Positions 1,422 through 21,434 of a stretch of DNA of 31,226 nt are shown one piece after another. The notes under the pieces were generated by a model. It was not told the DNA's origin. It saw only the letters and a list, made by a program, of their open reading frames with translations, and searched no databases. Positions within the stretch are counted from its first letter, which is position 1, and each line of letters begins with the position of its first letter. Source of the DNA: a virus (lineage: Duplodnaviria > Heunggongvirae > Uroviricota > Caudoviricetes); the IMG/VR virus record IMGVR_UViG_2541047916_000004; one strand, 5' to 3'. The translations under genes and the position numbers were made by a program.

Positions 1422-3893
1422 TTAAAAATCAGCCTGACTCGGGATCAGTTTTTGCCAGATAACTGAAACGTATTTTGCCTGGTAACGGGCGTCATCAAGT
1501 GCATTATGGCGCTCACCTTCGAATGGAATAGCCGTTCTGGCATCGAAGTCTATGGCTTTCCCCAGCTCAACGATTGTGCGTACATCGCGATCGTTGTAGT
1601 AACGCCACGGGCAGGGGATCCCCTGCCGTTCGTATGAACGGCGCAAAATCGTGTTGTCGAAGTTGGCTCCATTTCCCCAAACCTGAACAAAAAATTCACC
1701 GGAGTTTTCGTCGATAAATTCCCGCAATTGTAACAGTGCATCATCTAACGGGATTTCATCGGTCATAATGGCAGATTGCGCTTCGCGTGATTGCTTAAGC
1801 CACCATTTAATGGTGTCCCGATCAATGACTCCGCCAGCAGTTTCCAGATCGATAGTCTTACTAAATTCCGGTCCCATATCTCCGGTTTGCGGATCGAAAA
1901 ATATTGCACCTATTGAGATGATCGGGGCATCAGGATTTTTTCCCATGGTTTCAAGGTCGATCATTAGATGGTCACACGTCCTGCTGGTGGATGTGATTTC
2001 GTGATGACCGTTCACCTTAATTGAGCGATCTGCCGTCTCGCCAGTTTCATTATCGCTATCGTGATGCTGATTGCCGCCAGTGTTCTCCTTGTGTGGATGT
2101 TCAGCGCCTTCCATTTCCTCCGGATCATCTTCCTGAACTTCAACCTGATACTCTTCATCGAATGTTTCCTGGTATGTTGCGTCGCCCATCACCGCGCCAC
2201 AATCAGGGCAGTTGCCGCCGCCGGTCTGACCGCAGGCGGTGCAGACTTTTTCCACTTCCTGTTGCGCCACTGGTTCAGGCTGTTTCGTTTCTGGCTCGTT
2301 TTGTAACGCATTTGGGCTGTTTTGTTCCGCTTTTTGGTAGTTCCGTTCCGATTCATGCTGGTTCTGGTTCACAGAATCGCGGGTCTGGATCCCCTTAACC
2401 CATTTCGGATCATTCGGGTCACTAATCCCTTCAACAAATTCACCACGTGATGCAGCAAGCAACTTATCGGCGTCAGGCTGGCTGATATTGGCTGCCTGCA
2501 TAATTTTGTTTACTTCGTCAGCGGTAACTTTTATCGGCTCTGGTTGTTCTGAATCTTCAGCGGTATCTACATTTTGCGGTAAGCCCGTGTATGTGCCATT
2601 TTTTCGGGCAAAATATTCTTCTTTTGTGATTTCAGTGGCGCCAGCAGCCAGTGCCTTATCCAGACCAGAAAGTTTGTTTGCGCGACCGCATTTTTCTCCG
2701 TCCTTATCTGCGAAGAGGAAATAGAACGGCCCCTCACGCTCTACAGATGGTTCAGCTTCCGGCGCGGTTTCATTTTTTGGGATATCAGATACCTCAGTTT
2801 CCACTGCATCAGTTTGTGTTTCTGATGACTGGAGAACATCAACAGTGCCCAGGTCTGTTTCTTCATTCTCAAACACGCCCTTTGTCGTCAGGTATTCGCA
2901 GATATATTTGTTCAGTGCTATGGGATCTTTGTGAATGTCGATCGGACGCTCACGGACAAGGCCAAAAATAGTTTGGCGGTCGTAGCGAAGGGCATCAGGC
3001 TGTTTGCGCATTGATGCCGAGATACGCTTCCAGTCTTCGCGGTCGTTGTCGATAACTTCATTTTTTGCCCAGCGATGGATGCTGCCGTCAATGTTTCCGG
3101 CATCCACATCACCAGGCCAGAGAGCGTAGGCCAGTTCGTCATCCAGTGTTTTCCATGTCTGCTTGTATTCGCGATGAATGGCAGCAATGACCGGGCTGAT
3201 TTTTCCTGTTGAATTTTCACTGTGCTGTTGATTGGTTCTGGCGCGGGCGAGATCAATAACAGACGTGTATTTTCCGGTTTCCTTACGTTCACCTTCGCGA
3301 CGTTTTTTCCAGATGCGCATCTCTGCCTGAATTTCGGGCCATTTGGCACCAGGCTTACATTTATGCTTAACCCACCCGATGGCATGCAGCTTAAGCTCCG
3401 GATACATGGCGTTAACTTCTGGCATTTTCATCAACGCTTCAACGATATGTCCGTCGAATGTTGCCATGTCTTCCTGCAACAATTCCTGTGCGCTAATAAC
3501 CATATCAACGGTGATGTTTTCACATGTGTCGAACTTAACCATGACAGCGTTCTGTACTTCAGGGGCCAGCTTGTCAAAAGTGACGTTCATCGGATCGGAT
3601 TCAGTCTCAACCGGGACAAAGGAAGCAGACTCCTCATCCCAGCGGTTTTCCTGCATATATTCAGCATCCCAGGAATCGAGGGCAGGGCGGGGTATGCCGG
3701 GTTTATCCTCACAGACAATAAATTTATAAGCGCAGTCCTGAGCTGCAGGGAATTGCTCCAGAAATTGCCAATGAAATTTTGCGCGTGCGCGACGCTCATC
3801 ACCAGCTTCAATGGCAGTGGCCACCGCAACAGCGCTATCTTCTTTTATGGCCTGTTCATCAGGAATAGCAGCGCAAATAAAGACCTTACTCAT
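1422..3893 (-). CDS. Large phage exonuclease with C-terminal DnaQ-like DEDDh 3'-5' exonuclease domain
   Basis: 823-aa ORF; C-terminal 200 aa carry Exo I (MIDLETMG), Exo II (VWGNGANFDNT) and Exo III (HNALDDARYQ) motifs; acidic N-terminal region contains a CTACG...CPDCG zinc-ribbon-like motif. Confidence 0.75.
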   Translation of the reverse strand: MSKVFICAAIPDEQAIKEDSAVAVATAIEAGDERRARAKFHWQFLEQFPAAQDCAYKFIVCEDKPGIPRPALDSWDAEYMQENRWDEESASFVPVETESDPMNVTFDKLAPEVQNAVMVKFDTCENITVDMVISAQELLQEDMATFDGHIVEALMKMPEVNAMYPELKLHAIGWVKHKCKPGAKWPEIQAEMRIWKKRREGERKETGKYTSVIDLARARTNQQHSENSTGKISPVIAAIHREYKQTWKTLDDELAYALWPGDVDAGNIDGSIHRWAKNEVIDNDREDWKRISASMRKQPDALRYDRQTIFGLVRERPIDIHKDPIALNKYICEYLTTKGVFENEETDLGTVDVLQSSETQTDAVETEVSDIPKNETAPEAEPSVEREGPFYFLFADKDGEKCGRANKLSGLDKALAAGATEITKEEYFARKNGTYTGLPQNVDTAEDSEQPEPIKVTADEVNKIMQAANISQPDADKLLAASRGEFVEGISDPNDPKWVKGIQTRDSVNQNQHESERNYQKAEQNSPNALQNEPETKQPEPVAQQEVEKVCTACGQTGGGNCPDCGAVMGDATYQETFDEEYQVEVQEDDPEEMEGAEHPHKENTGGNQHHDSDNETGETADRSIKVNGHHEITSTSRTCDHLMIDLETMGKNPDAPIISIGAIFFDPQTGDMGPEFSKTIDLETAGGVIDRDTIKWWLKQSREAQSAIMTDEIPLDDALLQLREFIDENSGEFFVQVWGNGANFDNTILRRSYERQGIPCPWRYYNDRDVRTIVELGKAIDFDARTAIPFEGERHNALDDARYQAKYVSVIWQKLIPSQADF

Positions 3894-3988
3894 TTTGTTT
3901 TAACCTCATTACAGATTTCAGGGTGAACGAATCCCTGCCATTGCTGGCATTTTTAATCCGTTGGTATGGTGTTAATATGGCTGGAGGG

Positions 3989-4177
3989 TTATCCAGCCGG
4001 TGTTTCGTTATTCAGGTACAGCGATACTTTTTTTAGCGGGAGGCATTCACCAGAAATTTTTTGCTCGTCTCTTGCCTGGAGGCAGGATTCTTTACTTGCA
4101 TAAATTCCGGTAATCACATTCTGTGATTCACCCGTTATAAGAAAAACCGTCATCATCAGTGCAAATGCTGAAGTCAT
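3989..4177 (-). CDS. Hypothetical small protein with N-terminal hydrophobic signal/TM segment
   Basis: 62-aa ORF in an AT-rich stretch; start ATG overlaps stop of the upstream 62-aa ORF (ATGA), suggesting translational coupling; N-terminus MTSAFALMMTVFLITG is hydrophobic. Confidence 0.45.
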   Translation of the reverse strand: MTSAFALMMTVFLITGESQNVITGIYASKESCLQARDEQKISGECLPLKKVSLYLNNETPAG

Positions 4178-4362
4178 TGACGTTCTCCGAAAATACCAAG
4201 TTCAAGAAGAGCAATTCGGGAAAGTATGGAATTATCATTGAGCAGATAAGGCTCATATTTCCTCATATTAATGGCATCTTCAGTAAACTCCCGGTTACTG
4301 AGCAGAACACCAATATCAAAACAACCTTCAGACGTATTAACGTTTGGTAATAACGTTTCCAT
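4174..4362 (-). CDS. Hypothetical small protein
   Basis: 62-aa ORF, AT-rich, coupled by ATGA overlap to the downstream ORF; no recognisable motif. Confidence 0.45.
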   Translation of the reverse strand: METLLPNVNTSEGCFDIGVLLSNREFTEDAINMRKYEPYLLNDNSILSRIALLELGIFGERQ

Positions 4363-4933
4363 TATCGCGTCCTCAACAATGAATTTTGTGATGCAGTGCC
4401 TGGTGCCTCCAGGTGACGTTAACCAGTTAACAATTAACTCCGGGTTAGTTGATGCTCGTTACGCCCGTAAAATACCGCCTTACTGCTTTAACTGTTCCGC
4501 GTGCGCATAGCCGCATTCACCGCATCACAAAATTCACTTTAAAAAGGGCGGCAGAGCAGTCACGGAGTAAAACTGATACCGCCAAATGTCACCAGAAAAT
4601 TGATAACAGAGGGCGTTGTAGCGGGGTTGTCACTTAAGCGTATGGTCAACCTGACAACCCGGTGCATTTTCTGGAGCAATGGAGGAAACCCCAGCCATAC
4701 TTACCGCCGCGCCATTTCGCGGAGTGCCACAACCGGAAGCGCACGGTCGAACTAAATTTAACGACACCGTACAGAGAGACCAATTTCGCCGTGCGCTTTC
4801 GCGTTATGCCCTGACTTTTCAGGGACATATCCTTTCAGTAAGCTGTCAGTGCCGGATGCTCACCCGTGTCCGGCGCACGCACTCCACCTGACCCGTGGAG
4901 AACTCCTTAATTACCAACCCTCAGGAGGGTGAA

Positions 4934-5212
4934 ATGGATAAAAAGCAAATTGAGGCCCTGCAATCTATTATTGAAGAACAAGATGAAGCTATCAGGATTC
5001 TTTCATATCGCACTGATATGATACTAAATATGCTTTCTGCATTAACGGCTGCGCTTGGTGGTACAAAAACAAACGTATACCGCGAAGTTGTTATTCAACA
5101 GATAGATAAATTTGAAAAAACCATACCAGGTATTAATGCTCATCTTGCAGAACAAGAGAAAGACCATGCTCTTATGGCAATTTCTTCAGTAGCTCTCCCG
5201 AAAGTTGAGTAG
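4934..5212 (+). CDS. Hypothetical protein, predicted coiled coil
   Basis: ATG preceded by GGAGGG Shine-Dalgarno 6 nt upstream; 92 aa (MDKKQIEALQSIIEEQDEAIRIL...); AT-rich codon usage distinct from neighbours; opposite orientation to the surrounding leftward operon. Confidence 0.5.
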   Translation: MDKKQIEALQSIIEEQDEAIRILSYRTDMILNMLSALTAALGGTKTNVYREVVIQQIDKFEKTIPGINAHLAEQEKDHALMAISSVALPKVE

Positions 5213-5585
5213 TTTTAATTGTTGTTTTGAAATAATCACTGCTTTCACATTTGAGTGATTTCATGGCAATCCAAATGCGGGCCTCTGTGCCTGCATTTGG
5301 TTCCAGTTGCTGTAGACGTTTTGCGTCTTCCAAAAGTAAGGCGATAATGTGTTTCAGCTTCTCATCATTTGCTTGATTCTTGTTTTCAGGCGAATTCTGT
5401 CCGCCGAATAGGCGCTTCTCTTCATACAGACCTATAAAGGCACGACGCACGTTACCGGATATAGTATCGATGGTTTCCTTTTCTACGGTACTCAGGTCAA
5501 GAGTCGCCAGTTGAGAGCGAACCACATTCGATGCCATTTCCTGGAATGGTACTGGTAAATCTTTAAATTCCATCGTCAACCTCAT
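5172..5585 (-). CDS. Hypothetical protein
   Basis: 137-aa ORF; start overlaps stop of upstream 77-aa ORF by 1 nt (TGATG); 3' end overlaps the convergent + strand ORF by 41 bp. Confidence 0.5.
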   Translation of the reverse strand: MRLTMEFKDLPVPFQEMASNVVRSQLATLDLSTVEKETIDTISGNVRRAFIGLYEEKRLFGGQNSPENKNQANDEKLKHIIALLLEDAKRLQQLEPNAGTEARIWIAMKSLKCESSDYFKTTIKTTQLSGELLKKLP

Positions 5586-11024: not shown

Positions 11025-11261
11025 TTTTATGGATCACCTTTCTGATTGATTTCATATTGGCGAGGTGACGTGAGTTAAGTAGAATGGCTGCGGGTGCTTG
11101 AGGCTATCTGTCTCAGGCATGAACACTGAAAGGCAGATAGAGAAAAGCCCCAGTTAACATTTCGCGTCCTGCAAGACGCTTAACATTAATCTGAGGCCCA
11201 ATCTATGTCTCACAAATGTAGGTTAGCCTCTTACGTGCCGAAAGGCAAGGGGAAGCAGGCT

Positions 11262-11417
11262 ATGAAGCAGCAAAAGGCGATGTTAATCGCCCTGATCGTC
11301 ATCTGTTTAACCGTCATAGTGACGGCACTGGTAACGAGGAAAGACCTCTGCGAGGTACGACTCCGAACCGGCCAGACGGAGGTCGCTGTCTTCACAGCTT
11401 ACGAACCTGAGGAGTAA
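11262..11417 (+). CDS. hok: Hok/Gef family type I toxin
   Basis: 51-aa peptide MKQQKAMLIALIVICLTVIVTALVTRKDLCEVRLRTGQTEVAVFTAYEPEE, near-identical to Hok/RelF-family toxins; the longer in-frame ORF from 11205 is probably an artefactual extension. Confidence 0.85.
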   Translation: MKQQKAMLIALIVICLTVIVTALVTRKDLCEVRLRTGQTEVAVFTAYEPEE

Positions 11418-12914: not shown

Positions 12915-13280
12915 ATGACTGAACGCATAGAATTTGTTTTGCCTTACCCGCCAACGGTGAACACTTACTGGCGACGTCGTGGCAGCACATATTTTGTATC
13001 AAAAGTCGGTGAGCGTTATCGCCGTGATGTGGCGCTTATTGTTCGCCAGCAGCAACTGAAATTAAACCTGTCCGGAAGGCCGGCAATAGAAATTATTGCA
13101 GAGCCACCGGATAAGCGCCGTCGTGACCTGGACAATATCCTGAAGGCACCACTGGATGTACTGACGCATGCGGGGCTGCTCATAGACGACGAGCAGTTTG
13201 ATGAAATTAATATTGTGCGCGGTCAGCTTGTTCCTGGTGGGCGGTTGGGGATAAAAATCACAGAACTGGAGTACGCATGA
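12915..13280 (+). CDS. rusA: RusA Holliday-junction resolvase
   Basis: 121-aa ORF with the RusA-family pattern (YWRRRG... PPDKRRRDLDNILKAPLDVLTHAGLLIDDEQ...GGRLGIKITELE). Confidence 0.9.
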   Translation: MTERIEFVLPYPPTVNTYWRRRGSTYFVSKVGERYRRDVALIVRQQQLKLNLSGRPAIEIIAEPPDKRRRDLDNILKAPLDVLTHAGLLIDDEQFDEINIVRGQLVPGGRLGIKITELEYA

Positions 13281-13966
13281 ATAACCAGTATTTACAGTTT
13301 GTTCGTGAGCAACTCATGATTGCCACCGCCGATTTGAGTGGATCAACAAAAGGGCAGCTTGAGGCCTGGCAGGAGAATGCCATGTTTGATACAGGGCGTT
13401 ACAGGCGTAAAAAAATCCGGTACCGCGATGAAGTGACTGGAAAAATGATAACGCGGGATAATCCACCAATCCCGGGAAAGCAATCGCTGGCGAAGGGGGT
13501 GTCAATTCCTCTCGTCAGTCCGGTTGAGTTTTCGACATCATCGTGGCGGCGGGCTGTTCTGTCTCTTGAAGAACATCATAAAGCCTGGTTGTTGTGGTGT
13601 TACAGCGGGAGTATTTGTTGGGAATATCAGATCGCGATAACGCAGTGGGTGTGGAATGAATTTAAAACCCGGTACGGCACCAGAAAAATTGCAGGGAAAA
13701 CGCAGGAGCGCGTGAAGAAGTTGATCTGGCTGGCGGCACAGGATGTCAGAGGATGGATTACCGGGTGTGAGGTCTACCAGAGACAGGAGCTTGCCAGACT
13801 GTGTGGAGTTAAGCCTGATAACTGGAGCCATAATTATGCGAACTACTGGCGTGAGATGTGCGATATTTTTAAGAGTCTCGATAGAGAATCTGTGATTTGC
13901 ACCGTGAAAATAAGAGCGCAACAAAAAGCGACTTTTTCACGACGAGATATTGCAAAAGTCAATTAA
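13277..13966 (+). CDS. Q: Late-gene antiterminator Q-like protein
   Basis: 229-aa ORF coupled to rusA by ATGA overlap; conserved lambdoid position just upstream of a terminator and the late region; contains Cys/His-rich segment. Confidence 0.65.
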   Translation: MNNQYLQFVREQLMIATADLSGSTKGQLEAWQENAMFDTGRYRRKKIRYRDEVTGKMITRDNPPIPGKQSLAKGVSIPLVSPVEFSTSSWRRAVLSLEEHHKAWLLWCYSGSICWEYQIAITQWVWNEFKTRYGTRKIAGKTQERVKKLIWLAAQDVRGWITGCEVYQRQELARLCGVKPDNWSHNYANYWREMCDIFKSLDRESVICTVKIRAQQKATFSRRDIAKVN

Positions 13967-14033
13967 ATAGCGTACGCTTCGTATAAATCTGATATTTTGC
14001 CGATTTTGTACGCGATGGCAAAGTAAGAAAAAA

Positions 14034-14059
14034 AACTGCCGTCAGGCGGTTTTTTTTTA
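14034..14059 (+). terminator. Rho-independent terminator (tR'-like) just downstream of Q
   Basis: CTGCC-GTCA-GGCGG stem-loop followed by TTTTTTTTT. Confidence 0.55.
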
Positions 14060-14180
14060 TGCCCAAAATCGCGTCAGTACAGTAAACACGCTGGTGGTTG
14101 CGAATACGGGTCTTTCAGCTTGCTGGCTTTTTCGACAAGAGTTATTGGTATGTCACGTTAACCGGAAAAAGGAAAAAGAC

Positions 14181-14378
14181 ATGCTAAAACAGCAGGATAT
14201 GACAGAAACCGCCAGAGTGGTGTTTAATGAATTAAGCGTTACCGAACCGGCGACAGTCGGGGAGATAGCGCAGAATACTTACCTTTCACGCGAACGCTGC
14301 CAGTTAATACTGACCCAGCTGGTTATGGCGGGTCTGGCAGACTATCAGTTCGGTTGTTACAGACGCCTTCAGTCCTGA
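14181..14378 (+). CDS. Hypothetical small protein
   Basis: 66 aa from ATG 14181 (AAGGAAAAAG upstream); stop lies within a downstream hairpin/T-run; bracketed by two terminators. Confidence 0.4.
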   Translation: MLKQQDMTETARVVFNELSVTEPATVGEIAQNTYLSRERCQLILTQLVMAGLADYQFGCYRRLQS

Positions 14379-14392
14379 AGGCTTTTTTATTT
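14364..14392 (+). terminator. Rho-independent terminator
   Basis: GCCTTCAG-TC-CTGAAGGC perfect inverted repeat followed by TTTTTTATTT. Confidence 0.5.
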
Positions 14393-14528
14393 GTGGTAAA
14401 TGGGCGGCTGGTGGGTGTTAGGGGCACCCACCAGCCATCTGCTCATGCGTTGGGTTCACAAGCAAACCTCAGGCCCACTGCTTTGCGCAAAAGCAGAATG
14501 AGCCTATCAGAGACAGGCTTAATGATCC

Positions 14529-15578
14529 ATGCTTAATACTGTAAAAATATCCAGTTGTGAGTTAATCAACGCCGACTGCCTGGAATTTATCCGGTCGTTA
14601 CCCGAAAATTCTGTTGACCTGATAGTCACGGACCCGCCGTACTTTAAAGTGAAGCCTGAGGGCTGGGATAACCAGTGGAAGGGCGACGATGATTACCTGA
14701 AGTGGCTGGACCAGTGTCTGGCGCAGTTCTGGCGGGTGCTGAAACCTGTCGGAAGTCTTTACCTGTTCTGTGGTCATCGCCTGGCATCTGATATCGAAAT
14801 CATGATGCGTGAACGCTTCAGTGTGCTGAACCATATTATCTGGGCGAAGCCGTCCGGACGCTGGAACGGATGCAACAAGGAAAGCCTGCGGGCGTATTTC
14901 CCCGCCACAGAGCGCATTCTGTTCGCGGAACATTATCAGGGGCCGTATCGTCCGAAAGATGCCGGGTATGCGGCGAAGGGCAGTGCACTGAAACAGCATG
15001 TGATGGCCCCGCTGATTTCTTACTTTCGTGATGCGCGCGCTGCCCTGGGGATAACGGCAAAACAGATTGCAGATGCCACAGGAAAGAAAAACATGGTGTC
15101 GCACTGGTTCAGTGCCAGTCAGTGGCAGCTACCGAACGAAAGCGATTATCTGAAATTACAGTCGCTGTTTGCCCGGGTGGCAGAAGAGAAACATCAGCGC
15201 GGTGAACTGGAAAAGCCCCACCACCAGCTGGTGGATACGTATACGTCACTGAACCGGCAGTATGTGGAGCTGCAGAGTGAATATAAGCATCTGCGGCGGT
15301 ATTTTGGTGTGACGGCGCAGGTGCCGTACACGGATGTGTGGACACATAAACCGGTGCAGTTCTATCCCGGGAAACATCCGTGCGAAAAACCGGCAGAAAT
15401 GCTGCAGCAGATAATCAGCGCAAGCAGTCGTCCGGGTGACCTGGTTGCAGATTTTTTTATGGGCTCAGGTTCAACGGTAAAAGCGGCACTGGCGCTTGGG
15501 CGTCGTGCGATTGGCGTTGAACTGGAGACCGGACGTTTTGAGCAGACAGTCAGGGAAGTTCAGGATTTAATCGTTTGA
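14529..15578 (+). CDS. Orphan DNA methyltransferase (beta-class N6-adenine or N4-cytosine)
   Basis: 349-aa ORF; DPPY catalytic motif near the N-terminus (LIVTDPPYF) and FxGxG AdoMet motif near the C-terminus (DFFMGSGST); no adjacent restriction endonuclease ORF. Confidence 0.85.
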   Translation: MLNTVKISSCELINADCLEFIRSLPENSVDLIVTDPPYFKVKPEGWDNQWKGDDDYLKWLDQCLAQFWRVLKPVGSLYLFCGHRLASDIEIMMRERFSVLNHIIWAKPSGRWNGCNKESLRAYFPATERILFAEHYQGPYRPKDAGYAAKGSALKQHVMAPLISYFRDARAALGITAKQIADATGKKNMVSHWFSASQWQLPNESDYLKLQSLFARVAEEKHQRGELEKPHHQLVDTYTSLNRQYVELQSEYKHLRRYFGVTAQVPYTDVWTHKPVQFYPGKHPCEKPAEMLQQIISASSRPGDLVADFFMGSGSTVKAALALGRRAIGVELETGRFEQTVREVQDLIV

Positions 15579-15627
15579 AACGGATGAGATTGCAGAATTA
15601 ATTACGCACCATTATTATTCTGCTCCC

Positions 15628-15703
15628 GGCCCTTTAGCTCAGTGGTGAGAGCGAGCGACTCATAATCGCCAGGTCGCTGGTTCAAATCCAGCAAGGGCCA
15701 CCA
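15628..15703 (+). tRNA. tRNA-Ile2-like (anticodon CAU; ileX/ileZ-type)
   Basis: 76 nt cloverleaf: acceptor GGCCCTT/AAGGGCC, D-arm AGCTCAGTGGTGAGAGC, anticodon loop CTCATAA, T-loop TTCAAAT, ACCA tail; closely resembles E. coli ileX. Confidence 0.85.
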
Positions 15704-15710
15704 TCACATA

Positions 15711-15787
15711 CCGCCATTAGCTCATCAGGAAAGAGCGCCAGCTTTCGAAGCTGGTTGCGCGGAGTTCGGGTCCCCGAAGGCGGTCCA
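15711..15787 (+). tRNA. tRNA-Arg(UCG)-like, possibly degenerate
   Basis: D-arm GCTC...GAGC and anticodon stem-loop CCAGC-TTTCGAA-GCTGG are clean; acceptor stem has one mismatch and the T-arm is non-canonical (loop TTCGGGT, mismatched stem). Confidence 0.45.
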
Positions 15788-15800
15788 TTATCTGTATCCT

Positions 15801-15877
15801 GCGTTGTTAGCTCAGCCGGACAGAGCAATTGCCTTCTAAGCAATCGGTCACTGGTTCGAATCCAGTACAACGCGCCA
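15801..15877 (+). tRNA. tRNA-Arg (anticodon UCU)
   Basis: 77 nt: acceptor GCGTTGT/ACAACGC, D-arm GCTC...GAGC, anticodon stem-loop ATTGC-CTTCTAA-GCAAT, T-arm ACTGG-TTCGAAT-CCAGT, GCCA tail. Confidence 0.85.
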
Positions 15878-15892
15878 CACTTATTTTCCCTG

Positions 15893-15918
15893 GCTCGCTT
15901 TTGCGGGCTTTTTTTAAA
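15893..15918 (+). terminator. Possible terminator after the tRNA cluster
   Basis: GGCTCGC-TTTT-GCGGGCT imperfect hairpin (G-U wobbles) followed by TTTTTTT. Confidence 0.35.
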
Positions 15919-15920
15919 TG

Positions 15921-16142
15921 TCTCACAATTCAGGCGGTTGACTGTTGTCTGGTTTGCGGGGAGTTTGTTAAAAGAAACTGGCATGGTGAATCCCCCTGTG
16001 CGGAGGGGCAATCAGCGAGTAGGTATATGGGATAATCGCGGATTCAGGTGCTGGTACTGAATTCACCGGGAGGCACCCGGCACCATGCAATGGCACATAG
16101 CGCCACTCTCCAGCCCCTCTCCGGAGGGGCTTTTCTGTGCCG
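15921..16142 (+). repeat. Copy A of a tandem paralogous hairpin-rich element (candidate sRNA unit)
   Basis: Shares with copy B the blocks CTCACAATTCAG..GTTGAC, GCATGGTGAATCCCCCTG(T/A)GCGGAGGGGC, GGTATA..ATAATC, TGAA(T/C)TCACCGGGAGGCACCCGGCACCATG and AGCCCCTCTCCGGAGGGGCTTT (terminator-like hairpin plus T-run); sequence between blocks differs. Confidence 0.45.
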
Positions 16143-16324
16143 GATACATCACAGTTTCTGGAACCTTAGGTACTACAGTATCAGTCAGGGTGCTATATTT
16201 TCAGATGTGATGAAAGCCTGTCAGCAGGCAGGGCGTATCGGAAATGACCCAGTAGAGAAAACGTTGACTCAGATACCGGTGCTGAGTTACCGGGAAACCG
16301 GCATCACATGACCGCTATCCTTCC

Positions 16325-16352
16325 AGGCCCATCCGCTCCGGTGGGCCTTTTT
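16325..16352 (+). terminator. Rho-independent terminator-like hairpin between the two repeat copies
   Basis: AGGCCCA-TCCGCTCCGG-TGGGCCT followed by TTTTT. Confidence 0.45.
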
Positions 16353-16390
16353 ACTGCAGAAAACAGGTTCCCCGTTAAATGCTATGTTGC

Positions 16391-16625
16391 TCACAATTCA
16401 GTAAGTTGACAGTTGCCTGTCAGACTGGGCATTTGTTAAAAAAATTTCGCATGGTGAATCCCCCTGAGCGGAGGGGCGACTGGTGACGGTATAATCTCTG
16501 ATTATCAAAACGAGAATGACGCGGGTTTAGTGGCACCGGGTTGAACTCACCGGGAGGCACCCGGCACCATGTGCATGATGATACAGATACGCGGCTTTAG
16601 CCCCTCTCCGGAGGGGCTTTCTTAT
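16391..16625 (+). repeat. Copy B of the tandem paralogous element (candidate sRNA unit)
   Basis: Same conserved blocks as copy A in the same order, including a perfect TATAAT (GGTATAATC) and the terminal GCCCCTC-TCCG-GAGGGGC hairpin followed by TTTCTT. Confidence 0.45.
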
Positions 16626-16629
16626 GGAC

Positions 16630-16658
16630 AAAAAAAGCCCGCGCTGGGAGACGCGGGC
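16630..16658 (-). terminator. Rho-independent terminator readable on the minus strand
   Basis: Minus strand reads GCCCGCG-TCTCCCA-GCGCGGGC followed by TTTTTTT (plus-strand A-run 16630-16636); lies back-to-back with the plus-strand terminator of copy B. Confidence 0.4.
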
Positions 16659-16851
16659 GGCAAGGAATAAACAATAAAACGTGAAGTAATATTTCAGCTG
16701 GCGAATAATACCCCATAGTAATCACTCTGCGCAACTGCGCGGTCTTTTTCGAATTGCGGGCTGTAGTCTCCCTTCTGCCATTGTCCTGTAACTTCCGGAC
16801 TTCAGCCTGCTCCTTATCTGACTCACAACATTATCCCGCCCGGGAGGATTC

Positions 16852-18705
16852 ATGGCATTTAAACACTATGACGTGGTCAGGGCGGCATCGCCGTCAGACC
16901 TTGCGAAACGACTGACACAAAAACTGAAGGAGGGCTGGCAGCCGTTTGGTAGTCCGGTGGCCATAACCCCTTATACCCTGATGCAGGCGATTGCAGCAGA
17001 AGGTGATGTGGTCGTCAGTGGTGCAACTGAGCCGGAGTGGTACTACGTCATCGTACTGGCCGGGCAATCCAATGCCATGGCTTACGGTGAAGGGCTTCCG
17101 CTTCCGGATTCATACGATGCGCCCCATCCGCGCATTAAGCAACTGGCCCGTCGTAACACAGTGACTCCCGGTGGTGAAGTATGCGTATTTAACGACATCA
17201 TTCCTGCTGACCATTGTCTGCATGATGTTCAGGATATGAGTACGATTAACCATCCCCGGGCTGACCTGAGCAAAGGGCAGTACGGCTGTGTCGGACAGGG
17301 CTTACATATTGCCAAAAAACTGCTTCCGTATATCCCTAATAATGCGGGGATCCTGCTGGTACCATGCTGTCGTGGTGGTTCGGCATTCACCCAGGGCACG
17401 GAGGGGACATTCAGCGAGTCCACGGGAGCCAGTCAGGATTCGGCTCGCTGGGGAGTGGGTAAGCCGTTATATCAGGATCTGCTTTTCCGCACGAAGGCAG
17501 CATTGCAGAAAAACCCGAAAAACGTTTTGCTGGCGATATGCTGGATGCAGGGGGAATTCGATATGACGAATGCCAGTTACGCCCAGCAGCCAGCAGCATT
17601 TCTTGCAATGGTACAGCAGTTCCGTGCTGACCTTGCCGGGCTGGCGGCGCAGTGTCACGGTGGAAGTCCGGCATCAGTCCCCTGGATTTGTGGCGACACG
17701 ACATACGCGTGGAAACAAGAACACGGTACGCAATATGAAGTGGTATATGGTGCATATAAAGGTAAAGAATCCCAGCAGATTTATTTTGTTCCCTTTATGA
17801 CCGATGGTAGCGGAGTTAATACACCGACAAACAACCCGTCAGAAGATCCTGATATTGCCGGGTCTGGTTATTACGGTTCGGCATCCCGAACGAACAAAAA
17901 CTGGGTATCATCAAATCGCCCGACGCATTTCAGCTCATGGGCGCGTCGTGGCATTATTCCCGATCGTATGGCAACTGCTATTCTGAACGTAGCCGGTCGC
18001 ACCTTAGCCTTCATTAGTGGTAAGGCACCGGAAATCAAACCCTCGCCCGGCGGCGACACGCCATCGGGGCCGTCTGAAGATGCATCCATACGCACAATCT
18101 CCCTGTTGCCGACAGCCGGAGACGCTGCTGCGCAGGGCTGGAGCATTAAGAATGGCGGAATTCAGTTGTCAGATGGTGTATTTAAGATCACCAAGCAGAG
18201 CAATAAAGCCTGGTCCCTGACGCGCCCGGTGGATGACGCAGTCTCCCTGCTGACACGGGGTGGCAGACTGAGCTGTAAGTTTCGACTGTCAGGCGCACTG
18301 ACCAACAACCAGTTCGGTCTGGGAATTTATCTGTATACCGATGTAGCGTTACCTGACGTCGTGGCGATGACCGGGACTGGTAACCCGTTCCTGATGTCGT
18401 TCTTCACCCAGACCACAGACGGCAAACTGAATCTGATGCATCACAAGAAAGCAGGAAACACAAAGTTGGGCGAGTTCGGGAATTACAGTAACGACTGGCA
18501 GACGCTGGAGCTGGTGTTCACCGCCGGCAGTGCCACGGTTACTCCGAAACTGAATGGAGTGGCTGGCCCGGCATTCCAGGTCATAAAAGACAGTCTGACA
18601 CTGGGGCTGAATGCGCTGACGCTGACGGATATTACCAAAAATGCAGCGTATGGCGTTGAGATAGAAAGTCTGGTGCTGGAGATAAATGCACCGGCATCAT
18701 CATAA
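16852..18705 (+). CDS. nanS: NanS-p-like prophage sialate O-acetylesterase (N-terminal DUF1737-like region plus SGNH-type esterase)
   Basis: 617-aa ORF with GGGAGG RBS; N-terminus MAFKHYDVVRAASPSDLAKRL... and esterase-like core (VLAGQSNAMAYGEG); occupies the position just downstream of stx in Shiga-toxin phages. Confidence 0.8.
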   Translation: MAFKHYDVVRAASPSDLAKRLTQKLKEGWQPFGSPVAITPYTLMQAIAAEGDVVVSGATEPEWYYVIVLAGQSNAMAYGEGLPLPDSYDAPHPRIKQLARRNTVTPGGEVCVFNDIIPADHCLHDVQDMSTINHPRADLSKGQYGCVGQGLHIAKKLLPYIPNNAGILLVPCCRGGSAFTQGTEGTFSESTGASQDSARWGVGKPLYQDLLFRTKAALQKNPKNVLLAICWMQGEFDMTNASYAQQPAAFLAMVQQFRADLAGLAAQCHGGSPASVPWICGDTTYAWKQEHGTQYEVVYGAYKGKESQQIYFVPFMTDGSGVNTPTNNPSEDPDIAGSGYYGSASRTNKNWVSSNRPTHFSSWARRGIIPDRMATAILNVAGRTLAFISGKAPEIKPSPGGDTPSGPSEDASIRTISLLPTAGDAAAQGWSIKNGGIQLSDGVFKITKQSNKAWSLTRPVDDAVSLLTRGGRLSCKFRLSGALTNNQFGLGIYLYTDVALPDVVAMTGTGNPFLMSFFTQTTDGKLNLMHHKKAGNTKLGEFGNYSNDWQTLELVFTAGSATVTPKLNGVAGPAFQVIKDSLTLGLNALTLTDITKNAAYGVEIESLVLEINAPASS

Positions 18706-18790
18706 AAAGTGAGCCAGCCAAATGGAAGGTATCGTTAAACTCACCGGTAGTGTCAGTGGGTCGTCTGAGACGCCTGCATGAGTTATCAGA

Positions 18791-18820
18791 GCCATCAGTA
18801 CTTAACTGGTGGCTTTTTTT
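18791..18820 (+). terminator. Rho-independent terminator after nanS-p
   Basis: GCCATCAG-TACTTAA-CTGGTGGC (one G-U wobble) followed by TTTTTTT. Confidence 0.5.
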
Positions 18821-18855
18821 ATTGTTGTCAGCTTCCGGATAACGGGAGACGGGGT

Positions 18856-19071
18856 ATGTACCAGATGGAAAAAATCACAACAGGTGTGTCATACACCACG
18901 TCAGCGGTGGGAACGGGCTACTGGTTCCTGCAGTTGCTGGACAGGGTTTCCCCGTCTCAGTGGGCGGCAATAGGCGTGCTGGGGAGTCTGCTGTTTGGGC
19001 TGCTGACATATCTGACTAACCTGTATTTCAAAATCAGAGAGGACCGTCGTAAGGCGGCACGGGGAGAGTAA
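18856..19071 (+). CDS. S: Pinholin, phage 21 S21-like (dual-start holin/antiholin)
   Basis: 71-aa [74 protein letters not shown], closely resembling the S21 pinholin; Met1 and Met4 give the dual-start motif; upstream part of the longer ORF from 18778 is discarded. Confidence 0.85.
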
Positions 19072-19075
19072 TTCA

Positions 19076-19420
19076 ATGACTCAAAACTATGAACTGATTG
19101 TGAAAGGGATCCGCAATTTTGAGAATAAAGTTACGGTAACTTTAGCGTTACGGGACAAAAAACGCTTTGACGGTGAAATTTTTGACCTGGACATCTCGCT
19201 GGACCGTGTTGAAGGTGCCGCGCTGGAGTTTTATGAGGCAGCAGCCAGAAGGAGCATCAGACAGGTCTTCCTGGATGTTGCTGCCGGGTTATGTGAAGGG
19301 GATGAGCAGTCGCCGGAAAAGCGCCCCGTAATTTTAGAGGCGCAGGATGTGTTGATAACCTACAGAGGAAAACTACCGGGAATAATTACGGGTTCTCTGA
19401 AGAGTCCGCCGAAATGGTAA
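19076..19420 (+). CDS. Hypothetical protein inserted between holin and endolysin
   Basis: 114-aa ORF starting 4 nt after the holin stop, with GGGAGAG RBS; no recognisable motif. Confidence 0.55.
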   Translation: MTQNYELIVKGIRNFENKVTVTLALRDKKRFDGEIFDLDISLDRVEGAALEFYEAAARRSIRQVFLDVAAGLCEGDEQSPEKRPVILEAQDVLITYRGKLPGIITGSLKSPPKW

Positions 19421-19658
19421 TTTTACCAGCATATTTTTCATCCAGTAATACAGCAAGCCGCCTGAAAGAGTCTTGTTGTTCCTGAGACCATTTGGGATTG
19501 CATGATTCAAACTGGATTGATGCCAGCGTTGATTGCATCTGTTCCCTTGGAATTGAGAATGCCAGATATGAGAAGGCGACGGTAAGGGTATTCACGTCTT
19601 CCCGAAGCCTGGAAATGCTGTCGAGCAACTCCTGTAGAGAAATGGTGTTATTGTCCAT
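19386..19658 (-). CDS. Hypothetical protein, antisense to the lysis operon
   Basis: 90-aa ORF with GAGGA RBS 7 nt upstream of ATG on the minus strand; 3' end overlaps the convergent 114-aa gene by 35 bp; relatively AT-rich. Confidence 0.5.
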   Translation of the reverse strand: MDNNTISLQELLDSISRLREDVNTLTVAFSYLAFSIPREQMQSTLASIQFESCNPKWSQEQQDSFRRLAVLLDEKYAGKITISADSSENP

Positions 19659-19763: not shown

Positions 19764-20297
19764 ATGAACGCAAAAATCAGATACGGCCTGTCGGCTGCCG
19801 TTCTGGCGCTGATTGCCGCTGGTGCGCCTGCGCCTGACATTCTCGACCAGTTTCTGGATGAAAAGGAAGGTAACCACACCACGGCATACCGTGATGGCGC
19901 GGGTATCTGGACCATCTGCCGCGGTGCCATCCTGGTGGATGGCAAACCTGTCGTTCCGGGCATGAAGTTGTCGAAGGAAAAATGCGACCGGGTTAACGCC
20001 ATTGAGCGTGATAAGGCGCTGGCATGGGTGGAGAAAAACATCAAAGTGCCATTGAGCGAACCCCAGAAAGCGGGGATCGCGTCATTCTGTCCGTACAACA
20101 TTGGTCCCGGTAAGTGTTTCCCGTCGACGTTTTATAAACGAATTAATGCAGGTGATCGCAGGGGAGCGTGTGAGGCGATTCGCTGGTGGATTAAGGACGG
20201 TGGCAGAGACTGCCGTATTCGTTCAAACAACTGCTACGGTCAGGTATCCCGTCGTGACCAGGAGAGCGCGCTGGCGTGCTGGGGTATCGACAGATAA
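19764..20297 (+). CDS. R: SAR endolysin (T4-lysozyme-like, GH24)
   Basis: 177-aa ORF; N-terminal signal-anchor-release segment LSAAVLALIAAGAPAP; catalytic region EGNHTTAYRDGAGIWTICRG; functional partner of an S21-type pinholin. Confidence 0.9.
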   Translation: MNAKIRYGLSAAVLALIAAGAPAPDILDQFLDEKEGNHTTAYRDGAGIWTICRGAILVDGKPVVPGMKLSKEKCDRVNAIERDKALAWVEKNIKVPLSEPQKAGIASFCPYNIGPGKCFPSTFYKRINAGDRRGACEAIRWWIKDGGRDCRIRSNNCYGQVSRRDQESALACWGIDR

Positions 20298-20388
20298 GCA
20301 GAATATTTTGCTGAAAAATGCGGTTTGCTTACACGGACGGATAACACGAAATCCTGCGAACTGACAAAAACTAAGTGAATAAAAGTAA

Positions 20389-20427
20389 AAACCCCGTTTG
20401 TTGGCAGCAAGCGGGGTTTTGTTTTTA
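20389..20427 (+). terminator. Strong rho-independent terminator downstream of the endolysin
   Basis: CCCCGTTTG-TTGGCAG-CAAGCGGGG (9-bp stem with one G-U) followed by TTTTGTTTTT. Confidence 0.6.
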
Positions 20428-20491
20428 TGGCAGTAAGCTATGGGAGGCTGCCTTGATTGATTTTAGCAAACTGATTAGGGAGTTGCGACTC

Positions 20492-20587
20492 ATGATTAGT
20501 CAATTACCAAACTGGAAATTTTTGCTGGTCTGGAGCATCCCTTTTTTATGGGTAGTATCCCAGTTAATTGTGGCAATTAAGGGGTAG
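20492..20587 (+). CDS. Small hydrophobic peptide 1 (31 aa)
   Basis: ATG preceded by AGGGAG; MISQLPNWKFLLVWSIPFLWVVSQLIVAIKG, a single predicted TM segment; below the 60-aa ORF-track cutoff as a stand-alone gene. Confidence 0.35.
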   Translation: MISQLPNWKFLLVWSIPFLWVVSQLIVAIKG

Positions 20588-20589
20588 CT

Positions 20590-20721
20590 ATGTCAGACAA
20601 ACTCATAACGCCGGCAAAGGTCCTGTGTGTGATTGTCGGTATTTCATTTTCACTAATGCTGGTTGCTCTTTTTCTGTCCCTCGCCTGGGTGATGTTGTCT
20701 TCGTCGGGGCTGCTGGGGTGA
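20590..20721 (+). CDS. Small hydrophobic peptide 2 (43 aa)
   Basis: ATG preceded by AAGGGG with 5-nt spacer; MSDKLITPAKVLCVIVGISFSLMLVALFLSLAWVMLSSSGLLG; starts 2 nt after the peptide 1 stop. Confidence 0.4.
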   Translation: MSDKLITPAKVLCVIVGISFSLMLVALFLSLAWVMLSSSGLLG

Positions 20722-20840
20722 CAGTGACTGATGACATCAGCAGAGCGCTGGCTTTTGCTATTAAGTGGGTGGCTGTTGGTATTGCTGTGTCTCCGATGCT
20801 GTATGGGCTGGCAAAACTGGTCATTGCGCTGAAATCGTGA
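20718..20840 (+). CDS. Small hydrophobic peptide 3 (about 40 aa, GTG start)
   Basis: GTG overlapping the peptide 2 stop (GTGA); ...SRALAFAIKWVAVGIAVSPMLYGLAKLVIALKS; start codon choice uncertain. Confidence 0.3.
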   Translation: MTVTDDISRALAFAIKWVAVGIAVSPMLYGLAKLVIALKS

Positions 20841-20851
20841 ACTTTAAAAAG

Positions 20852-20938
20852 ATGAGTGCTGAACTTATTCGGGCAATGGCATTTGCCATTCGTATTGTGG
20901 CCATTGCTGTTCTGGTCTGGGCAATCCGTTGGTGGTGA
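20852..20938 (+). CDS. Small hydrophobic peptide 4 (28 aa)
   Basis: [28 protein letters not shown]; shares the motif A(L/M)AFAI(K/R) with peptide 3; stop is 1 nt before the Rz start; weak RBS. Confidence 0.3.
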
Positions 20939-20939
20939 T

Positions 20940-21434
20940 ATGAACCGTGTTCTGTGTGTGGTGATTATTGTCATGCTGGTAGCCTGTGGTGTGCTTAGTC
21001 TGGGGCTGAATCATTACCGCGATAACGCCATCACCTACAAAGCGCAGCGCGATAAAAAAGTCAGTGAGCTGAAACTGGCGAATGCCACTATTACTGACAT
21101 GCAGCAGCGCCAGCGAGATGTCGCTGCGCTTGATGCCAGATACACGAAGGAATTAGCCGATGCGAGAGCTGAAAATGAAACTCTGCGCGCTGATGTTGCC
21201 GCTGGTCGTAAGCGCCTGCGGGTCAACGCCACCTGCCCCGGTACCGTGCGTGAAGCCACCGGCACCTCCAGCGTGGATAATGCAACCGGCCCCCGACTGG
21301 CAGACACCGCTGAACGGGATTATTTCATCCTCAGAGAACGGTTGATGACAATGCAGAAGCAGCTGGAAGGGGCGCAGGAATATATCCGCACTCAGTGCAC
21401 TAAGCTGGCTTTTTATTATCCGGAGGATACATGA
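20940..21434 (+). CDS. Rz: Rz i-spanin
   Basis: 164 aa from ATG 20940: N-terminal TM ([18 protein letters not shown]) then a coiled-coil periplasmic domain; contains an embedded Rz1 ORF in another frame. Confidence 0.85.
21175..21345 (+). CDS. Rz1: Rz1 o-spanin lipoprotein (embedded in Rz)
   Basis: [15 protein letters not shown] lipobox signal followed by a proline-rich mature region ([16 protein letters not shown]); fully nested in a different frame within Rz. Confidence 0.8.

Follow-up and report, generated by a model that had tools for sequence, protein, structure and literature searches.

When the late region of a prophage has the layout of a Shiga toxin (Stx)-converting phage and contains no toxin gene, has the toxin been lost, and what occupies its place? 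The question is raised by a 31,226-nucleotide stretch of DNA from a virus of the class Caudoviricetes (IMG/VR record IMGVR_UViG_2541047916_000004; the whole stretch is called the window hereafter), in which a tRNA cluster and a gene for a NanS-p-type sialate O-acetylesterase enclose a non-coding interval with tandem genes for small RNAs (sRNAs). An initial annotation, made from the sequence alone, read positions 15628–18705 as the late-region scaffold of an Stx phage without the toxin genes, belonging either to a toxin-free relative or to a phage that had exchanged its toxin for structured elements. The present analysis indicates that the region is very likely the late-operon “moron” zone of a toxin-free lambdoid Escherichia coli prophage that is common in extraintestinal lineages. 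Judged by sequence similarity, its scaffold modules are those of Stx-converting phages, namely a DNA methyltransferase (methylase) gene, ileZ/argN/argO-type tRNA genes, a cargo slot, a gene of the STnc100 sRNA family, nanS-p, and a P21-type lysis cassette. The names ileZ, argN, and argO are those of phage 933W, to whose tRNA genes we take the present ones to correspond.

Several elements of this picture have been described. Morons of the late region can carry their own promoters and terminators, and NanS-p enzymes de-O-acetylate Neu5,9Ac2 (PMC8065619). The nanS-p gene occurs in Stx and non-Stx prophages alike, and the SASA domain of its product is flanked by prophage-specific N-terminal (DUF1737) and C-terminal domains (PMC10462455). 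STnc100 lies 75 nt downstream of the stx2 operon and was detected by reverse transcription PCR in vesicles from E. coli that makes Shiga toxin (PMC12370729). PasD of enteropathogenic E. coli is a prophage sRNA that associates with Hfq, depends on Hfq for its stability, and has targets identified by RIL-seq (Pearl Mizrahi et al. 2021, PMC8550237), while PasD and STnc100, both linked to Hfq, share ancestry and lie directly upstream of the prophage sialate esterase gene (Zhu, Shabalina & Storz 2026, bioRxiv 10.64898/2026.05.13.724894).

Position of the toxin slot

The absence of an AB5 toxin gene, stated in the initial annotation, was borne out, because tblastn searches of the whole window with Stx2A and Stx2B of the Stx2a phage Stx2_95 (LC567838) and with Stx1A and Stx1B of phage H-19B (AF034975) gave no match with E < 1. 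When the stx1 and stx2 cassettes were compared with the window by blastn, they matched it solely through the sRNA unit 3′ of stxB. None of the open reading frames (ORFs) within the 974-bp non-coding interval at 15878–16851 had Pfam support below E 0.05, and a composition scan found no anomaly that sets the slot apart. The gene order that had been claimed, which runs from a Q-type antiterminator through terminators, a methylase, three tRNAs, and an esterase to a lysis cassette, was reproduced by the ORF listing, ARAGORN, Pfam, and a terminator scan, and the span 15628–18705 covers the tRNAs through the esterase but leaves Q, the methylase, and the lysis cassette outside.

On the plus strand, the tRNA genes lie at 15628–15703 (anticodon CAU; Rfam 72.5 bits), 15711–15787 (tRNA-Arg(UCG); 42.9 bits), and 15801–15877 (tRNA-Arg(UCU); 70.1 bits), as located by ARAGORN. 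The CAU tRNA was labeled Met by ARAGORN, whereas the identical gene in E. coli CE10 is annotated as tRNA-Ile by PGAP, in agreement with the earlier call of Ile2. The anticodon order CAU, UCG, UCU is the same as that found 5′ of stx2 in Stx2 phages, according to the annotation of Stx2_95.

Alignment of this region with Stx1 and Stx2 late regions placed the edges of the toxin locus at single bases. A stretch of 8.3 kb of the window matches 487 phage records, mostly of Stx1- and Stx2-converting phages, and 14032–15919, within which the methylase gene common to Stx2 phages is located, is 93.9% identical to Stx2_95. On the left side, 15500–15919 aligns with positions 2968–3388 of the Stx2_95 locus at 90%, and homology ends at 15919, which is 41 bp beyond tRNA-Arg(UCU) and leaves 50 bp to the start codon of stx2A; the edge is formed by the terminator that follows the last tRNA gene (15892–15919, plus strand), as found by the terminator scan and the alignment. 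On the right side, 16391–16900 aligns with positions 4724–5237 at 91.5%, so that homology is regained at 16391, 46 bp beyond the stop codon of stx2B. Homology to the Stx1 phage H-19B resumes at the identical base of the window, 54 bp after stx1B. Because homologous flanks, 90–95% identical, are found on both sides, the interval from the tRNAs to nanS-p and the stx locus are syntenic, and the breakpoints at 15919 and 16391 define the slot in the window as 15920–16390 (471 bp). In this scaffold, the stx cassette is bounded on the left by the last tRNA's terminator and on the right by a conserved sRNA gene, at its head.

The agreement with Stx phages that the initial annotation proposed holds from the methylase through nanS-p and the lysis genes but not for Q, which the Stx phages compared do not share with the window; homology to the Stx2a phage begins at ~14032. 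The window has the late-region synteny of an Stx-converting phage and lacks its stxA-stxB operon. Stx2_95, annotated in the order methylase, tRNA-Met/Arg/Arg, stx2A, stx2B, yjhS (nanS-p), holin, endolysin, and endopeptidase, shares with the window the methylase, the three tRNAs with their terminator, STnc100, the spacer, nanS-p, the P21-type holin, endolysin, and Rz at 85–96% identity. It differs in having stx2AB (~1.33 kb, positions 3389–4723 of its locus) where the window has the 471 bp described below, another Q, and additional ORFs from nanS-p to holin. H-19B has an STnc100-type unit from the base equivalent to 16391 and P21-type S, R, and Rz, but it carries stx1AB with Q directly upstream of stx1 and has no methylase or tRNA genes 5′ of the toxin.

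sRNA genes in and beside the slot

Three head-to-tail sRNA units are present on the plus strand: unit A (223 bp, 15920–16142) and unit X (248 bp, 16143–16390), which occupy the slot, and unit B (239 bp, 16391–16629). Units A and B belong to the STnc100 family by the score of Rfam (RF02076; gathering score 47 bits), both matching the model in full length (1–206), A with 136.3 bits at 15952–16142 and B with 160.4 bits at 16420–16629 (E 1e-31 to 1e-38), and their terminators lie at 16112–16131 and 16599–16618, respectively. Each unit opens with a version of CTCACAATTCAG, which TTAAATG precedes at the heads of A and B, and the conserved unit head is found at every junction. Unit B has its orthologue in the copy located behind stx2B and stx1B; in Stx2_95, STnc100 sits downstream of stx2B. 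Since Stx phages likewise possess unit B, it belongs to the scaffold, and the slot cargo consists of A and X only. The “structured elements” that had been proposed to replace the toxin are, accordingly, sRNA genes of the STnc100 family, of which A and X do fill the slot and B does not, and the flanks of stx are shared by A and X but not by B, which is itself part of the scaffold.

Unit X gave a weak Rfam match at 16181–16354 (30.1 bits, E 2.3e-4), which is under the gathering score, so that X is not an RF02076 member by the curated criterion; its terminator is at 16325–16348. In an alignment of ten sequences, X can nevertheless be matched to canonical units over its full length. A long-range closing helix and an inner helix of the consensus fold are retained in X via two-sided changes, with 15 of the 36 predicted pairs altered on both sides; the closing helix is formed by AUGUGAUG/CAUCACAU in X and by GCAUGGUG/CACCAUGC in the canonical units. 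The centroid fold of X alone has the same architecture. At the sequence level, A and B are 68% identical and X is ~50% identical to either. In comparison with the PasD locus of phage 2B8 (NC_049952), which was used as a proxy for PasD1/2 of E2348/69, the identities were 48–50% for A and B and 35% for X, and the locus itself scored 38.3 bits with the STnc100 model; measured against 2B8 PasD, the units here are not similar enough to be classed as PasD. Given its predicted architecture and compensatory pairs, X resembles the STnc100 family and would represent a diverged third member.

Two further observations concern these units. On the strand opposite unit A (window 15971–16096, minus strand; 16472–16597 of the CE10 locus), the PGAP annotation of CE10 and of many further genomes has a partial pseudogene for a “hypothetical protein,” which is probably a mis-annotated sRNA gene. 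In addition, a conserved 5′ hairpin segment of STnc100, UGAAUCCCCCUGNGCGG (15987–16003 and 16455–16471), is 82% complementary to CCGCCCGGGAGGAUUCA (16836–16852), which contains the ribosome-binding site and start codon of nanS-p. Pairing between them was set aside as a mechanism, for the complementarity is weaker in PPyecE_EH1910 by eye, the sRNA segment is itself within a hairpin, and the match may be due to chance.

Slot states and their frequency

Six distinct states of the slot were seen among the loci fetched, which upholds the earlier notion of a cargo hotspot. The slot holds stx2AB in Stx2_95 and stx1AB in H-19B, only a 35-bp spacer in phi296 (the empty-site form), two sRNA units in the window and in PhiR5_2, a toxin-antitoxin pair and a TerB-like gene, followed by STnc100 with convergent AgvB, in PPyecE_EH1910, and DUF3927 and IraM genes around the sRNA triplet in E. 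coli 51008369SK1. The stx-negative phage vB_EcoP_phi296 (Traversvirus tv86) has tRNA-Met/Arg/Arg, STnc100, and NanS like the window but, after its tRNA terminator and the 35-bp spacer, one unit instead of three. That unit (4005–4250 of its locus) is a mosaic whose head and 3′ end are A-like (80–100%) and whose middle is B-like (92–100%), which shows recombination between unit alleles. The TL-2011a and PPwrbA phages gave hits with coordinates, the only feature compared, that match those of phi296.

The triplet A-X-B itself is found with different neighbors. PhiR5_2 (PV340546) carries it 5′ of a CP-933V-type esterase gene and is co-linear with the window over 15911–16900 at 77%, but it has no methylase and no three tRNAs upstream and its early genes are different. 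In 51008369SK1 (2373–4263 of the locus), another Q, a single tRNA-Ile, and the DUF3927 gene precede A-X-B, and iraM, which encodes an anti-adapter, and a truncated esterase gene follow it. The triplet is conserved as such in both, with X alleles of 86% identity. Occurrence of A-X-B in several backgrounds, with other Q genes and other neighbors, indicates that the triplet is a conserved mobile module. At the other extreme, CE10 (prophage at ompW), APEC O18, ATCC 11775, and many ST131-like genomes are 99.8–100% identical to the window from the tRNAs through A-X-B to nanS-p, while the packaging and structural modules and the insertion-sequence insertions of such resident prophages vary among genomes.

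The frequency of these configurations was counted over 5426 complete E. coli genomes, a genome being scored when a single place covered at least 80% of the query, except for unit X, for which any match was counted. The whole 1401-bp stretch at 15500–16900 was found in 341 genomes, including those of the neonatal meningitis strain CE10 and APEC O18, and, of a 25-kb part of the window, at least 80% was covered in 275 genomes. The junction of tRNA to stx2A was present in 599 genomes; that of tRNA to unit A was present in 1040 and the phi296-type junction in 705, two sets that may overlap. Unit X was detected in 673 genomes (671 with at least 80% coverage) as two alleles, 345 at ≥99% and 327 at ~85% identity, and it is present at 100% identity in the E. 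coli type strain ATCC 11775; no annotated feature lay under it among the matches listed. The toxin-free configuration is common and ordinary, and in sequenced E. coli the toxin-free slot states are at least as common as the toxin-bearing state. These junction-specific searches, three in number, were used in place of a query made of the joined flanks, which was dominated by tRNA matches of unrelated phages; ~10 informative rows among the matches listed for that query in the phage collection were all Stx phages, with ~1.36–1.73 kb extra.

Discussion

The findings suggest that, in a scaffold that the prophage has in common with Stx-converting phages, units A and X form an alternative to stx as cargo and are no scar of its loss. 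The reading of the phage as a toxin-free relative is borne out by the syntenic tRNA-to-nanS-p interval together with the absence of a toxin gene from the window. The other option raised in the initial annotation, that of an exchanged toxin, has found no support. It is improbable, in our estimation, that the prophage descends from an Stx phage in which stxAB was deleted or replaced and the gap was filled by the sRNA units. Such a history would explain the flanks, which are 90–95% identical to those of Stx2a phages, and the breakpoints, which are the edges of the stx cassette; moreover, Zhu et al. consider repeated stx loss as one explanation for toxin-free sRNA-esterase loci (bioRxiv 10.64898/2026.05.13.724894). 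However, no nucleotide or protein remnant derived from stx was found, both junctions are clean module boundaries that the empty-site phage phi296 also uses, and A-X-B is met as one unit in backgrounds that are unrelated. Among Stx phages, furthermore, even the nearest are only ~91–93% identical to the window, whereas every relative of 99.8–99.9% identity carries A-X-B. As neither a remnant of stx nor a toxin-bearing sibling of near identity was found, nothing points to a recent exchange.

Still less probable is that the array arose by recent tandem duplication, in place, of the STnc100 unit of the scaffold, so that no cargo was acquired. The three units do follow one another head to tail with similar lengths and a common head motif, but the identities given above, 68% between A and B and ~50% between X and either, are low for recent copies, and A is nearer to the single STnc100 allele of PPyecE_EH1910 (91.5% over 15963–16090) than to its neighbor B. 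The triplet is, in addition, kept in PhiR5_2 and 51008369SK1 with X alleles of 86% identity, which means that any duplication would be old and would predate the spread of the module. The divergence of A from B and the closeness of A to the PPyecE_EH1910 allele, without any stx remnant, argue against both a recent exchange and a recent duplication and fit old modular recombination at the unit heads. That the interval encodes small proteins rather than RNAs is hardly credible, since the mechanical ORFs of 41–109 aa in it, though accompanied by the PGAP pseudogene antisense to unit A in CE10, overlap the tRNAs and one another and have no Pfam match below E 0.05, while the Rfam matches are strong and base pairs are kept by compensatory change.

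Some points weigh against the interpretation of A and X as an alternative cargo of functional sRNA genes. A lineage that never had stx and one that lost it long ago are both compatible with the data. Unit X, with its score under the Rfam gathering score, could be a decaying copy. No plus-strand promoter was found for A, X, B, or PR′ by a sigma-70 scan of 13900–16900, and independent transcription of the three units is deduced solely from their terminators and family membership. Some genomes, moreover, may be counted under both the A-type and the phi296-type junction, given the A-like head of the phi296 unit. With regard to the first of the promoter results, no convincing −35/−10 pair was recognized by eye at the unit heads either, and the same scan identified neither a PR′ promoter nor a Q-utilization site.

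If A and X are cargo, the locus might work as follows. The lysogen would produce short, separately terminated transcripts from the tRNA genes and from the sRNA units, and sRNAs A, X, and B might act as Hfq-dependent regulators in trans, by analogy with PasD. Upon induction, polymerase modified by Q would start from PR′ and read past the tR′-like terminator and those of the tRNAs and the three sRNAs, and this read-through would then express nanS-p and the genes for the pinholin, the signal-anchor-release (SAR) endolysin, and the spanin. The transcription step is probably the weakest part of this model, because no promoter was found in the sigma-70 scan. As for the origin of the array, it might have been assembled when different phages recombined at their conserved unit heads (TTAAATG..CTCACAATTCAG), and it would now move as a module.

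A bolder proposal, which we put forward tentatively and would not favor at present, is that A-X-B constitutes an sRNA moron of three genes, conserved and mobile, in competition with stxAB for the slot, and that X is a functional branch of the STnc100/PasD family, the third and hitherto undescribed, with targets of its own in extraintestinal E. coli lysogens. If this were true, the unit head TTAAATG..CTCACAATTCAG would be the recombination joint at which stx and other cargo are swapped. As a speculative variant, the units, each consisting of a closed multi-helix domain and a terminator 5′ of nanS-p, may act in cis on read-through into nanS-p.

No matter how the array works, the finding is real but ordinary and in large part already known, and RefSeq genomes contain the exact sequence by the hundreds. 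Published accounts already cover the scaffold, where stx is positioned in it, the occurrence of nanS-p in non-Stx prophages, and the location of STnc100/PasD upstream of the esterase. Loci of PasD and STnc100 resemble that of the window in having a structured sRNA of ~200 nt with a 3′ terminator directly 5′ of the sialate esterase gene, in a family linked to Stx-like phages, but the window has three tandem units, and tandem arrays were not found in the available text of Zhu et al. Within the parts of the literature that were accessible, we also found no description of the base-level coincidence of the right junctions of stx1 and stx2 with the STnc100 unit head, or of the conserved A-X-B triplet with its diverged, unannotated middle unit, and each of these is a modest addition. 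The analysis supplies base-level coordinates for the position of the Shiga toxin cassette in the phage scaffold, which would be of use in interpreting stx-negative “Stx-like” prophages in genome surveillance and in considering how toxin cassettes move between phages. Unit X and the array may interest researchers of Pas and STnc100 sRNAs, with the overall picture unchanged.

Other features of the window

Upstream of the tRNAs, the gene for the Q-type late antiterminator (229 aa, 13277–13966, plus strand; PF06323, E 1.4e-83) is followed after 72 bp by a terminator-like hairpin with a T9 run (14038–14059, hairpin 14038–14050, plus strand), recognized by the terminator scan and in the sequence. 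Of the layout expected of a lambdoid late operon, Q, a terminator behind it, and a lysis cassette are present, and the PR′ promoter and Q-utilization site were not identified by the promoter scan. The hairpin would be the tR′ of the late promoter. A search of PDB sequences with Q gave a noise match only and no relative. Next on the plus strand come a small conserved phage ORF of 65 aa (14181–14378, phrog_331), annotated as a 198-nt hypothetical protein gene in CE10, another terminator-like hairpin from the scan (14365–14382), and the N6/N4 DNA methyltransferase gene (14529–15578; PF01555, E 2.7e-44). In total, the intrinsic-terminator scan counted 13 terminator-like hairpins in 13900–16900, against 3.5 expected from shuffled sequences.

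The spacer between unit B and nanS-p (16630–16851) is conserved, being 95.7% identical to those of Stx2_95 and phi296. It contains a strong minus-strand terminator right after unit B (16658–16637), positioned and oriented like AgvB in PPyecE_EH1910 (4947–5008 of its locus), and a weak plus-strand hairpin at 16727–16742. The minus strand at 16630–16720 could hold a convergent anti-sRNA-like gene; its only match was a weak one to OmrA-B (E 0.034), with none at the Rfam threshold. AgvB/AsxR (RF02702/RF02703) was considered for this position and rejected, as no match with E ≤ 1 was obtained in 15560–16900.

The esterase gene (16852–18705, plus strand) encodes 617 aa with DUF1737 at residues 3–50, SASA at 66–262, and DUF6645 at 467–577, which is the domain composition of NanS-p (PMC10462455) and predicts sialate O-acetylesterase activity. 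In CE10 its counterpart bears the annotation SASA family carbohydrate esterase, and in Stx phages the gene is called yjhS. The gap between nanS-p and the holin gene (18706–18855) contains a hairpin and, behind it, a T7 run (~18789–18822) and is 99.4% identical in PPyecE_EH1910 and CE10; comparison with the equivalent part of phage 2B8 gave no match. PasA/PasC are located between nanS-p and holin by Zhu et al. (bioRxiv 10.64898/2026.05.13.724894).

The lysis genes, all on the plus strand, begin with a P21-type class II holin of the pinholin type with a dual start, MYQM (18856–19071; PF04971, E 2.3e-32, and CE10 annotation). A DUF1327/YdfR protein gene, recognized by Pfam, lies between it and the endolysin gene (19764–20297; phage lysozyme, PF00959), and the Rz spanin gene (20856–21434; PF03245, E 7e-51) has Rz1 embedded in it (21160–21345; PF06085, E 1.7e-21). 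The translated lysozyme shows the Gly/Ala-rich N-terminus YGLSAAVLALIAAGAPAP along with the motif E-x8-D-x5-T, both of which recall SAR endolysins; it is probably one of them and, together with the holin, would fit the pinholin/SAR type of phage 21. Among these genes, a conserved 90-aa ORF (phrog_2411, function unknown; hypothetical protein in CE10) is located on the minus strand at 19386–19658, between the YdfR-like gene and that of the endolysin. The stretch from the endolysin gene to Rz (20375–20938) has a strongly negative AT skew and three small, partly overlapping ORFs with similar hydrophobic C-terminal segments (phrog_6632, 3246, 1115, and 4493, function unknown).

Farther away, the window starts with a gene for a lambda-type integrase on the minus strand (1–1131), which marks the start of the prophage; from there the prophage extends to the structural genes. 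The early region contains the DicF antisense RNA (4546–4597, minus strand) and the sok antitoxin RNA of a hok/sok-type module (11092–11267, plus strand). An IS21-family element with an IstB ATPase gene (PF01695) and a gene for a 499-aa transposase with a Mu-transposase C-terminal domain is situated among the structural genes (28009–30260, minus strand).

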